From a virus (taxonomy: Duplodnaviria; Heunggongvirae; Uroviricota; Caudoviricetes): a stretch of DNA of 47,303 nt. Position 1 is the first letter of the stretch; every line of letters begins with the position of its first letter. Positions 3,001 through 6,000 of this stretch are shown one piece after another. A program made the position numbers. The stretch covers positions 1-47,303 of IMG/VR virus record IMGVR_UViG_2728369105_000001, one strand, 5' to 3'.

Positions 3001-6000
3001 CTCAACACCTGCTACTGCAAAATGGATATCAGATGTCACAGACGGACTTGCTGATTGTTGTTTTTACGCTGGGCATTTTAGCCTTTGGCTATTCCATATG
3101 GTTCATTTCGAACAGAATACTCTGCTCAATATTTCATAGACTTACAAAGAATGTATGAATTGGGATGGTATAGACCCAAATTCATGGTCCTTGCTCCTCG
3201 ACGTCGGAAGGTACTTACAGATCATCTTCGCTCTTAACCTATCACATCGGCACCTACTCCATGATGTAAAAGCTCAGAGCAGAAATATCTGGAAGCTTTA
3301 GGCATCTTATTGGAAGATAGACGAGCGCAAAGACGCACACAGCAATGATGTTATGTAGTATTTTCCCCTTGAGTGTGCCTGCTCAAGGGGATTTTTTATC
3401 TGTGAGTGCTTCAATATCACTTCACTCCCTAATTGCACACAGGCCTACACGCAGGCGCCGCATCCAATTCGCACTCCATGTTTACGCAATTTAACAATCT
3501 AACATAAAGATTTATGACGTCATTTTGAAATCATTAAGTTATAAAAATATTTAAAGAACATTAACCTCTTTCCGGAACAAAACATGATGAAAACAAAAGC
3601 TGACCTGCTTCTGTTATTACTTGCCCCACTGTTACAACAGGCGCATGCAACTGACTGCGAACCTAACGGGTATGGGGGAACCTTTTGCATCAATGATGAC
3701 GGAACGACATCTGATAGCATACCAAACGAAGTTAATGGGCAGGATGTCTACTCAAGCAACGGTACATCAAAGATCATTTCACCTGATGAATCTGGAATGA
3801 ACAATGTCCTGAATGATAATGACGATGATGAAAACTCCGACCTCAATGGCTCATTGGACCCGGACTCTTTATCATCTCAGAATAATACAAACCAAGGCTC
3901 GACGGGTCACGATGAAGCCAATAACCCCCTAATGGGCCGTGACTGGAACTCGCCAGCTAATATCAATTCGGATGGTTCAGCAACATCCAGTATCAATCCT
4001 GATGAGTAAGTGGCAGATTTTTAAAGGCATCCACATCGTAATTTTGCGGAATTTTTTTCACATCCACTCAGCTCAGCTCATGTCCGCAACCTGCTACGGG
4101 GTGGACCCGCCATCCAGCATCGCATGGACCATACTCGACAACTTCTGGAATCGTAACACAGTGCAAGCCACCAACGCGAACCACTGATCTCTCATGCCGC
4201 TAACCCTGTGCGAATTCTCTCAACGATAATCTCTTGCTCCATCCCAGTCGACGCGCTCAAGATATGGAAGTAAAAAATATTGCTAACTAGCTTTCTGGGG
4301 TATATAAATTACTTGTTATCATTATTTCCCACATGAGCATTAAAAAATTATCTTTGGTGTATCCTCTCAATCTAACTAAAGGTTAACGAAATGAAGCATG
4401 GAATGATTTTAACAAGAAAAATGACGTTAGAAAATGGTTCTATATCAGTAAATGGAGGCTTTGACCCATCAGCTCTAAGATTAGCCGTTTTATATCTTGA
4501 CGGAATATGTGTACCACAATCACAACTTGTTGGATTTGGGTTAACCGAAGAGATGAAAACATTAAAATCGGAAGGTTATCTATCTGAAAAATACTATCCT
4601 ATAAGACAGTCCCAAGCAGCAGGCTCAGATATATTGGTAACAGCATATGGAGACTGTTTCGAAGAGTTAAATAAAACAAATAACGAAGTTTGGATGGTTC
4701 ATAACTCCCTCAATGCTCACTTAACTAAAATAAAGACAACTGATGATGGCGGAGAATGCATTCAATTACTAAATGCACTTCCTATGCCAGGTGAAGATTT
4801 CCCTCTTGGTGACCTTCTCGAATTCAAGAGCAAAAGGAAAGACAACTTAAAAGAGCTGTTATTATCAATAGAGGAGTTTCGCCTTGAAATAATAAACTCT
4901 GAAAATCAAGACATGGAAATAAAGAAATCAATAATAAAAATTGAAAAGAACATAATAGACCTACATAAATTAATCAAAGAAACACAGCCAGGGTGGTATT
5001 TATCGAGTTTTTCATTGGATATTTCATCAAATGATTTGCTTGATGTTTTTACAAAAATTTATGGTGAGGCGAAAGAACTTGGAATGGAAGAACTGAATGC
5101 ATTGCTGACATCTGCTGGTTTAAGTGTAGCAACTTGCTTTAATATAAAGGGAGGGTATAGATTTAAAGCAGGCAAACCCAATTCTCCATATCTTTATGCT
5201 GCTGAAGTGAAACAGAAATTCAGAATAAACTAAACCTCATGCCAAGGCATTACCCCTCAATGCCTTGGCATTAAAAACACCCAAACTTTAATAAGTTAAA
5301 ATTCTAATCAGACATTCTCTGCACCGGAAAACACAGAAAGTGTTTTCAGATACGCATATCCCTGGTTAGTAATGCTTTCAGAAGAATCGGGATCGGGTGT
5401 GAATGTGTAGTTCTTCATCGCGCCCGGTGCCATCTCGTCATCGTCCGTGTCACTGAAAAATACGCTGAGGTTGATTGACGCAGCATTACCTCCGAAGCTC
5501 TGTATTTTCGCGAACCGGAATACAGTATCGCCGTTCGACGTCAGAATATGAAACTCGCCTTTTAAAGCCATCGTTATGCCTCCAGTCCAAACCGCCATTG
5601 CGGGTTAGTCAATGTCACCCCTGAACCGCCTGTTATCGTGAACAGGACCTGCTCCTGAAATTTCAAATCAACCAGTATTCCGTGCGTGCCCGGTACGTTC
5701 GTCTGAAATACGGGCATACCGTTTTTAGATACTGAACAGGAACCACCGCTGGAAGGGATAGTCAGCGAGACAAAATACCGTCCCGGGCGTCGGTACGGAT
5801 ACTGGAATGTCGAGCCATTTCCCACCACCGTGCCATTAAGCGGGTGCGCAGCCTCTCTCAGGGAAAACGAGGACTGCGAGCCATCGTCGGTGTACCGGAT
5901 GCGGCAGAAGTTGGTTTTTCTCGTCTTCACTGTCCCCAGTTGCTCTTTGTTAGCCAGCCGGATGACGTAGTTGGTTGTGTTCCCCTCAAGCTTACAGCGC

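Follow-up and report, generated by a model that had tools for sequence, protein, structure and literature searches.

A DUF6236-family gene carried as prophage cargo between the tail fibre and the att site of a Klebsiella variicola prophage

What is a lone AT-rich gene doing near the end of a prophage, facing the tail operon from the opposite strand? The question is raised by IMG/VR record IMGVR_UViG_2728369105_000001 (Caudoviricetes), analyzed here over positions 1 to 47,303 (the window, 47,303 nucleotides), which contains a prophage of ~42.8 kb integrated at tRNA-Arg(CCT) in Klebsiella variicola. The initial annotation, made from the sequence alone, had singled out a plus-strand open reading frame (ORF) of 280 amino acids (aa) as an unrecognised cargo gene, perhaps for lysogenic conversion or defence. 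The comparisons described below show that the region from ~4272 to 5300 has the make-up of a self-contained moron, with a promoter-like block, one gene and a hairpin terminator, inserted with the remains of an invertase gene on one side and the 3' end of the tail operon on the other. The gene codes for a member of the DUF6236 family, and its genomic context makes a role in phage exclusion plausible.

A cargo cassette beside the tail operon

The cargo gene (4391..5233, + strand) was assigned to DUF6236 by its matches to PF19749 and phrog_23128. It has an ATG start at 4391, which is supported because the N-terminus MKHGMILT is kept in the homologues of the protein. Both the ORF and the region before it are AT-rich, as had been noticed: the GC content is 34.4% in the ORF and 35.8% in the 190 nt upstream, against 48.4% for the whole window, and at third codon positions the GC content (GC3) is 27%, while the gpJ-like tail gene nearby has 65%. 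The product (31.4 kDa, pI 5.4) had been described as rich in Lys, Glu, Ile and Asn; these residues are indeed frequent (Lys 25, Glu 24, Ile 21, the same as Gly and Ser, and Asn 17), but the commonest one is Leu (37).

The AT-rich leader (4272..4390, +), read from the sequence, contains a promoter-like block with TTGCTA at 4280-4285 and TATAAA at 4303-4308, separated by a 17-nt spacer, followed by an AAGG Shine-Dalgarno at 4379-4382. The two hexamers agree with the consensus at 4/6 and 5/6 positions, and the block is kept in one other allele (that of IMG/VR contig L011) and was not called by a stringent promoter scan. We infer that it could work as a promoter. At the other end of the gene, a perfect hairpin (5239..5271) with a stem of 13 bp (ATGCCAAGGCATT at 5239-5251 and AATGCCTTGGCAT at 5259-5271) and a 7-nt loop starts 5 nt past the stop codon of the cargo gene, which ends at 5233, and lies before the stop (5308) of the convergent 96-aa ORF, just where the initial annotation had placed it. 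Its folding energy is -22.1 kcal/mol (z = -7.6 against shuffled sequences), and only ~0.006 such hairpins would be expected by chance in the window. It is likely to be a two-way terminator of both convergent transcription units, with an efficiency that we only infer because, of the two T-tracts, that of the + strand (TAAAAACACCC) is poor and that of the - strand (GAGGTTTAGTTTATT) moderate. The L011 allele is followed by a partly conserved 9-bp version of the hairpin, and two other homologues (L005 and L010) have strong downstream hairpins that are not related to the one in the window. An Rfam scan of positions 900-5700 gave no RNA family.

Evidence for a mobile cassette came from a near-identical prophage, that of contig L011, in which the tail genes are 92-100% identical to those of the window while the cassette is only 71-80% identical. 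The homology of this allelic cassette starts at 4272, so that the promoter-like block is included, and its right border falls within the 3' end of the 96-aa ORF, where the identity is 69% between 5248 and 5394 and at least 92% from 5395 onwards. The L011 allele is 79% identical to that of the window and the synonymous sites between the two are near saturation (synonymous divergence, dS, of 1.55), while the tail fibre next to it is 92-99% identical. Given the difference in identity between tail genes and cassette and the high dS, the comparison indicates that the allele has been replaced by recombination exactly at the cassette borders and independently of the tail fibre. The ratios of nonsynonymous to synonymous change (dN/dS) were 0.07 against the L011 allele and 0.16 against an allele from Raoultella, the mark of a real gene under purifying selection. 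Relatives without cargo also exist. In phages KpF5 and Kp4882-1, with a gpJ 87-95% identical to that of the window, the integrase lies directly beside the tail fibre and the cargo gene is missing from the junction. Together with a base composition that deviates from the surrounding phage genes (34% versus 48% GC) and the own promoter-like block and terminator, this absence strongly supports the view of the initial annotation that the slot carries cargo.

The placement of the gene in the tail-fibre-to-att interval could also be confirmed. One copy of a 19-bp direct repeat (CTTAGTTAAATGGATATAA), taken as the att site, was found at 1014..1032, at the prophage end nearest the cargo gene, and the second at 43788-43806, within tRNA-Arg(CCT) (43783-43857), which is adjoined by a P4-type integrase gene (42400-43752). 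The repeat at 1014 puts the cargo gene 3.4 kb inside the prophage end, and a yfdC-like formate/nitrite transporter gene (1-933) flanks the prophage on this side. At the left border of the cassette we found a relic of a Gin/Hin-type DNA invertase gene with in-frame stops (4195..4260, -). It was detected by tblastn (64% identity over 22 aa, E 6e-4) with a 76-aa invertase C-terminal fragment encoded upstream of a Klebsiella oxytoca homologue (L088), which in turn matches residues 108-181 of the Gin invertase 4m6f (E 5e-17). On the right, the 96-aa ORF (5308..5598, -) is the last gene of the tail operon and matches phrog_18037, which has no assigned function. It is preceded by the tail-fibre (receptor-binding) gene (5574..8036, -), convergent with the cargo gene and recognised by PHROG tail-fibre families with E values down to 2e-16. 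For this gene we have taken the ATG at Met85 of a 904-aa ORF that opens with TTG; gene callers give 823 aa, likewise in locus L085.

The DUF6236 family and its recurrence on mobile elements

The initial annotation had found no motif that could be placed in the protein. This does not hold, since it matches Pfam DUF6236 (PF19749) with 50.6 bits (gathering cut-off 26.2, E 2e-13) over residues 124-232 only, and aligns from end to end with phrog_23128 (E 1e-27). All 57 aligned relatives match PF19749 as well, the best with an E of 9e-42. At NCBI, the identical protein carries the name "DUF6236 family protein [Klebsiella variicola]" already; it is listed in 27 sequence-collection blocks, with the same arrangement in the three places shown. 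The term unrecognised is therefore only half right: the label exists, but it names a family that is catalogued and wholly uncharacterised, with no function or structure assigned, and the literature, searched for DUF6236 and PF19749 as well as for the Vibrio phage records, gave no paper.

The family is large. In an exhaustive profile search, 1046 clusters defined at 50% identity had a representative with E ≤1e-3, and for 510 of these E was ≤1e-10. Positions 1-281 were aligned with proteins of 270-320 aa, a length range that holds nearly all the full-length members among the 150 best listed. The cargo protein has the single-domain architecture of ~280-320 aa with the central P-x-P...EFK-x-KR motif, and the family motifs LLYxD, ALPxP...FPLxDLLEFKxKR and SPYxY are present in it. 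The Klebsiella/Raoultella branch is divergent and shares only 20-30% identity with the bulk of the family. Klebsiella, Raoultella, Serratia and Sphingomonas are the sources of the named members, and many other Proteobacteria those of the loci. No domain fusions were seen among the DUF6236 sequences, a third word-indexed search gave single-domain proteins only, and the N-terminal extensions of some representatives are of low complexity or mis-called starts. A megablast of positions 4200-5300 against complete E. coli genomes gave no match. Scans of a genome collection with the close-family alignment found nothing; the scan that worked used a proteobacterial sub-alignment, the broad alignment being too variable.

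The same slot is used again in unrelated phages. In Raoultella siphoprophages at two integration sites and in a myovirus-type prophage of K. oxytoca, a DUF6236 gene sits in the equivalent place; Klebsiella phage Mulock has the order integrase, DUF6236 and convergent tail fibre; and in a Vibrio prophage DUF6236 is the first gene after the tail fibre. In phiCTX-like phages the gene is convergent with the P2-Q-type portal, exactly at the position of ctx in phiCTX, and so the family recurs in siphovirus-, myovirus-, Mulock- and phiCTX-type prophages, in support of the cargo reading of the slot. It was also found in the nin region of a lambdoid phage, between ninB and ead and on the opposite strand. 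We have examined 27 IMG/VR loci, 23 of them on contigs of at least 15 kb, and in 19 of these 23 the gene was within 4.4 kb of a contig end, when 7.6 would be expected; not one simulation out of 200,000 gave so high a number. In 14 of these 19 copies the gene points inward, like that of the window.

The alleles found in equivalent slots form a natural series, with 79%, 63%, 58%, 40% and 28% identity to that of the window. The last one is common in Klebsiella pneumoniae (664 sequence-collection blocks) and is carried by the same argW prophage lineage, with a gpJ 96.6% identical to that of the window. In one K. pneumoniae genome, a 4.2-kb block containing the tailspike C-terminus and DUF6236 was found in two different prophages with 98% identity. 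Downstream of the K. pneumoniae allele (L094/L095, 9178-9299) there is a segment of ~122 nt with a 79% match to its own reverse complement. Given the invertase relics nearby, this could be what is left of the crossover site of an invertible segment, or else a large terminator.

Over 46 non-redundant loci, the DUF6236 gene had a median GC content 12 points below its flanks, and was below them in 39. There is no conserved partner gene, as judged from all-against-all BLAST comparison of the neighbours, first over 53 and then over 27 loci; only lineage-specific phage genes recur beside it. Integrases, resolvases and transposases are among the immediate neighbours of the chromosomal copies in Proteobacteria, and a few neighbours are defence genes (Type IIG restriction-modification, PD-Lambda-1, HerA, mads and PDC-S15). 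Plasmid copies are located in accessory regions, beside tet(39)/DUF6088 and near relBE between tra genes. Family members are also found next to a P2-type portal and in non-phage islands of many Proteobacteria. Such a picture is the signature of mobile accessory cargo, compatible with a function in conflict but no proof of it. As a separate observation, a protein of ~220-270 aa is encoded within a few genes of DUF6236 in six of the IMG/VR loci (L059, L065, L066, L069, L072 and L073), some of them phiCTX-like. It starts with MDKLMCGR in the one member inspected, and may resemble the SRAP/YedK abasic-site peptidases.

A possible role in phage exclusion and its rivals

With 57 aligned sequences, AlphaFold2 gave a model of the cargo protein with a pLDDT of 78.7 and a pTM of 0.77, which supersedes a poor one (pLDDT 54) obtained with 10 close homologues only. 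In the model, residues 1-135 form an N-terminal alpha/beta domain of the Rossmann-like type and residues 139-195 a long hairpin of antiparallel helices, while the C-terminal part is beta/alpha and of lower confidence. Beyond the generic Rossmann-like domain it matches no solved structure, and the helical hairpin and the beta/alpha region had no structural match at all. A profile search of PDB sequences gave no relative, only coiled-coil noise on the hairpin. The top Foldseek matches in the PDB were the CARF-domain proteins Csm6, Csx1-Crn2 and Cad1, none of them significant, and we regard the fold matches of the model as generic Rossmannoid noise. Among 148 sequences the positions conserved at 95% or more are D37 (97%), P131, P133, F145 and R149 (95%). 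Conserved polar positions are few (R30, D37, acidic residues at 54 and 141, basic ones at 146 and 148, R149, E197 at 90%, and Y269), and the basic patch K146-x-K148-R149 starts the long helical hairpin. In this alignment there is no His, Cys or Ser that is conserved, nor any catalytic motif that could be recognised. Likewise, the cargo protein contains no nuclease, NTPase, TIR, SIR2, HEPN or pore-forming motif, and neither the HEPN Rx4-6H motif nor the PIN acidic tetrad nor a nucleotide-binding loop could be verified in it. A hydropathy check found no transmembrane segment or signal peptide (maximum Kyte-Doolittle mean over 19 residues 1.28), so the protein is soluble and cytoplasmic; it has a single domain.

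From the genomic context, our preferred reading, tentative but quite possible, is that of a stand-alone intracellular protein expressed in the lysogen for phage exclusion or abortive infection. The gene would probably have a transcript of its own in the lysogen, running opposite to the late operon, and its product would act inside the cell, most likely to the benefit of the lysogen. The Rossmann-like domain, with its near-invariant Asp37, and the K146-x-K148-R149 patch would together probably serve in binding, with a nucleotide, nucleic acid or phage protein as the ligand, and the great divergence of alleles that occupy one slot (28-79% identity) may mean that their target specificities differ. 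It is a more doubtful, although still possible, extension that DUF6236 as a whole is a widespread single-gene family of anti-phage immunity borne by mobile elements, with a fold and mechanism unlike those of known systems, and that the divergent alleles of the end-of-prophage cassette set the phage specificity.

Single-gene defences borne by prophages in variable hotspots are well known (e.g., 10.1101/2021.01.21.427644), such as the P2/P4 hotspot systems, BstA, HK97 gp15 and SieB/RexAB of lambda. The DUF6236 gene resembles these hotspot defences in its variable, recombination-prone slot, its deviant GC, its polymorphism in presence and allele, and its stand-alone character. It differs from them in matching no model of PADLOC v2, and from HK97 gp15 and the Sie proteins in not being a membrane protein. 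In the searches, PADLOC-DB v2.0.0 gave no match to the cargo protein at E values up to 10, and no consistent match to 57 and then 148 relatives, the 148 giving only scattered ones with E of 2e-4 or weaker and no more than 3 relatives per model. A weak NCBIfam match to Hhe (E 0.09) and matches to LmuB were judged coiled-coil artefacts. The suggestion of defence or exclusion made in the initial annotation thus keeps its plausibility from context, with nothing added by PADLOC. A parallel in layout and position is the ctx moron of phiCTX, a single gene on the + strand that has a promoter and terminators of its own and converges with the P2-Q-type portal at the genome end, and a phiCTX-like phage with a 73%-identical portal has a DUF6236 gene exactly at the ctx position. 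However, the two genes have no sequence relationship, and ctx is an exported pore-forming toxin while the DUF6236 protein has no export signal.

This occupation of the slot of the ctx cytotoxin would agree with a factor for host physiology or virulence. It would also agree with a passenger, selfish or neutral, for instance a toxin of the addiction type or a gene kept silent, as often happens to AT-rich genes after their acquisition; neither kind would have any part in conflicts among phages. We consider this unlikely. The protein has no signal peptide or transmembrane segment with which to be exported, there is no partner antitoxin or conserved neighbour, and a dN/dS of 0.07-0.16 together with at least 1046 clusters argues for a selected function on mobile elements of many hosts; because of this strong purifying selection and wide distribution, a function in conflict fits better than host-specific virulence. 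A part in the conflict could also be played on the side of the phage, with the protein helping the prophage or its induced progeny as an inhibitor of host defences or as a Rossmann/CARF-like binder or degrader of a host immune signalling nucleotide. Phages do carry signal sponges and ring nucleases, the top PDB matches point to CARF proteins, and one relative has a weak match to the PADLOC CARF-HEPN model (E 0.003). These CARF-like matches, however, are its sole support and are not significant. Neither they nor matches to other Rossmann-like domains of the PIN, USP and HUP types stand out, the cargo protein has neither the significant CARF match nor the effector domain (e.g., HEPN with Rx4-6H) that a CARF sensor-effector should have, and the placement of the gene is wrong for an early anti-defence gene. 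We give this counter-defence function a small probability, less than that of a host factor or passenger.

The linkage of the DUF6236 gene to a receptor-binding gene suggests still another conversion function, that of a cytoplasmic enzyme altering capsule or lipopolysaccharide precursors (e.g., a sugar or nucleotide-sugar), which would change the receptor of the neighbouring tail fibre or spike and block the adsorption of similar phages. Here the swap of the L011 allele next to a 92-99% identical tail fibre is contrary evidence, since the cargo gene changes independently of the receptor-binding protein. So are the family members found in the lambdoid nin region, by a P2-type portal, on plasmids and in non-phage islands; besides, neither DxD nor any other transferase motif is conserved and the fold matches are generic noise. 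Such an enzyme appears as improbable to us as the counter-defence factor. O-antigen modification of the membrane Gtr/Oac type, one of the examples offered in the initial annotation, was rejected: those proteins have several transmembrane helices, which the low hydropathy of the cargo protein does not support. Finally, the gene adjoins tail-fibre genes in several prophages, as an assembly, chaperone or structural accessory protein of the tail operon might do. Yet it lies on the other strand, where it has a leader and a terminator of its own, differs from the tail genes in GC3 (27% versus 65%), is missing from close relatives with the same tail genes, and occurs in other cases far from tail genes and outside phages. 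Homology to a structural or fibre-assembly protein, named by the initial annotation as the result that would speak against cargo, was looked for and none was found in Pfam or PHROG. We have rejected this role as extremely improbable.

If DUF6236 does exclude phages, a compact single-gene system of ~0.85 kb would be added to the defence catalogue. It would also bear on the prediction of host range for therapeutic Klebsiella phages, as one allele alone is listed in 664 collection blocks. The family is common in prophages of Klebsiella, Raoultella and Serratia, as well as in many other Proteobacteria. With the clean borders of the cassette, the natural series of alleles and the cargo-free relatives, an experimental design is ready at hand; should no defence phenotype appear, the gene would be one more well-delimited moron. 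A DUF moron at a prophage end will be no surprise to the specialist, and it is the breadth and consistency of the comparative pattern, with the allele series, that make it a good experimental candidate for a new single-gene defence.

Other features of the prophage ends

Within tRNA-Arg(CCT), the 19-bp att repeat occupies the 5' (D-arm) part, and the integrase is found upstream of this tRNA. Therefore, integration of the phage seems to take place in the 5' half of the gene and not at the usual 3' end. Beside the integrase and argW, at the prophage end opposite to the DUF6236 gene, there is an ORF of 307 aa with ~29% GC (41461-42384, -) and no match in Pfam, PHROG or PADLOC. It is a second orphan cargo gene, arguably more obscure than the DUF6236 gene. 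In the early region, a protein of 362 aa (39197-40285, +) matches the PADLOC model of DndB (E 3e-37) and phrog_7901 (E 1e-193), and is DndB/DGQHR-like.

Other features are located between the att repeat at 1014 and the DUF6236 gene. A conserved element of ~164 nt (3238-3400, +) ends in a strong intrinsic terminator at 3366-3400 (CCCCTTGAG...CTCAAGGGG followed by TTTTTT), and is 92-93% identical in the otherwise divergent cargo regions of a Raoultella (L003) and a K. pneumoniae (L094) prophage. It has no Rfam match and could represent either a small RNA or the 3'-terminal piece of a gene. An ORF of 141 aa (3584-4009, +), rich in Asn, Asp and Ser and without a family match, has an apparent signal peptide, and another of 256 aa (1407-2177, -) codes for a hydrophobic protein with several likely membrane segments (phrog_18775, no assigned function). 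Between them, at 2258-2867 (-), a UmuD-like protein (phrog_3469, E 6e-46) is paired with an overlapping protein of 79-94 aa (phrog_3893), and prophages of Raoultella, K. oxytoca and K. pneumoniae carry this pair again, close to the same end.

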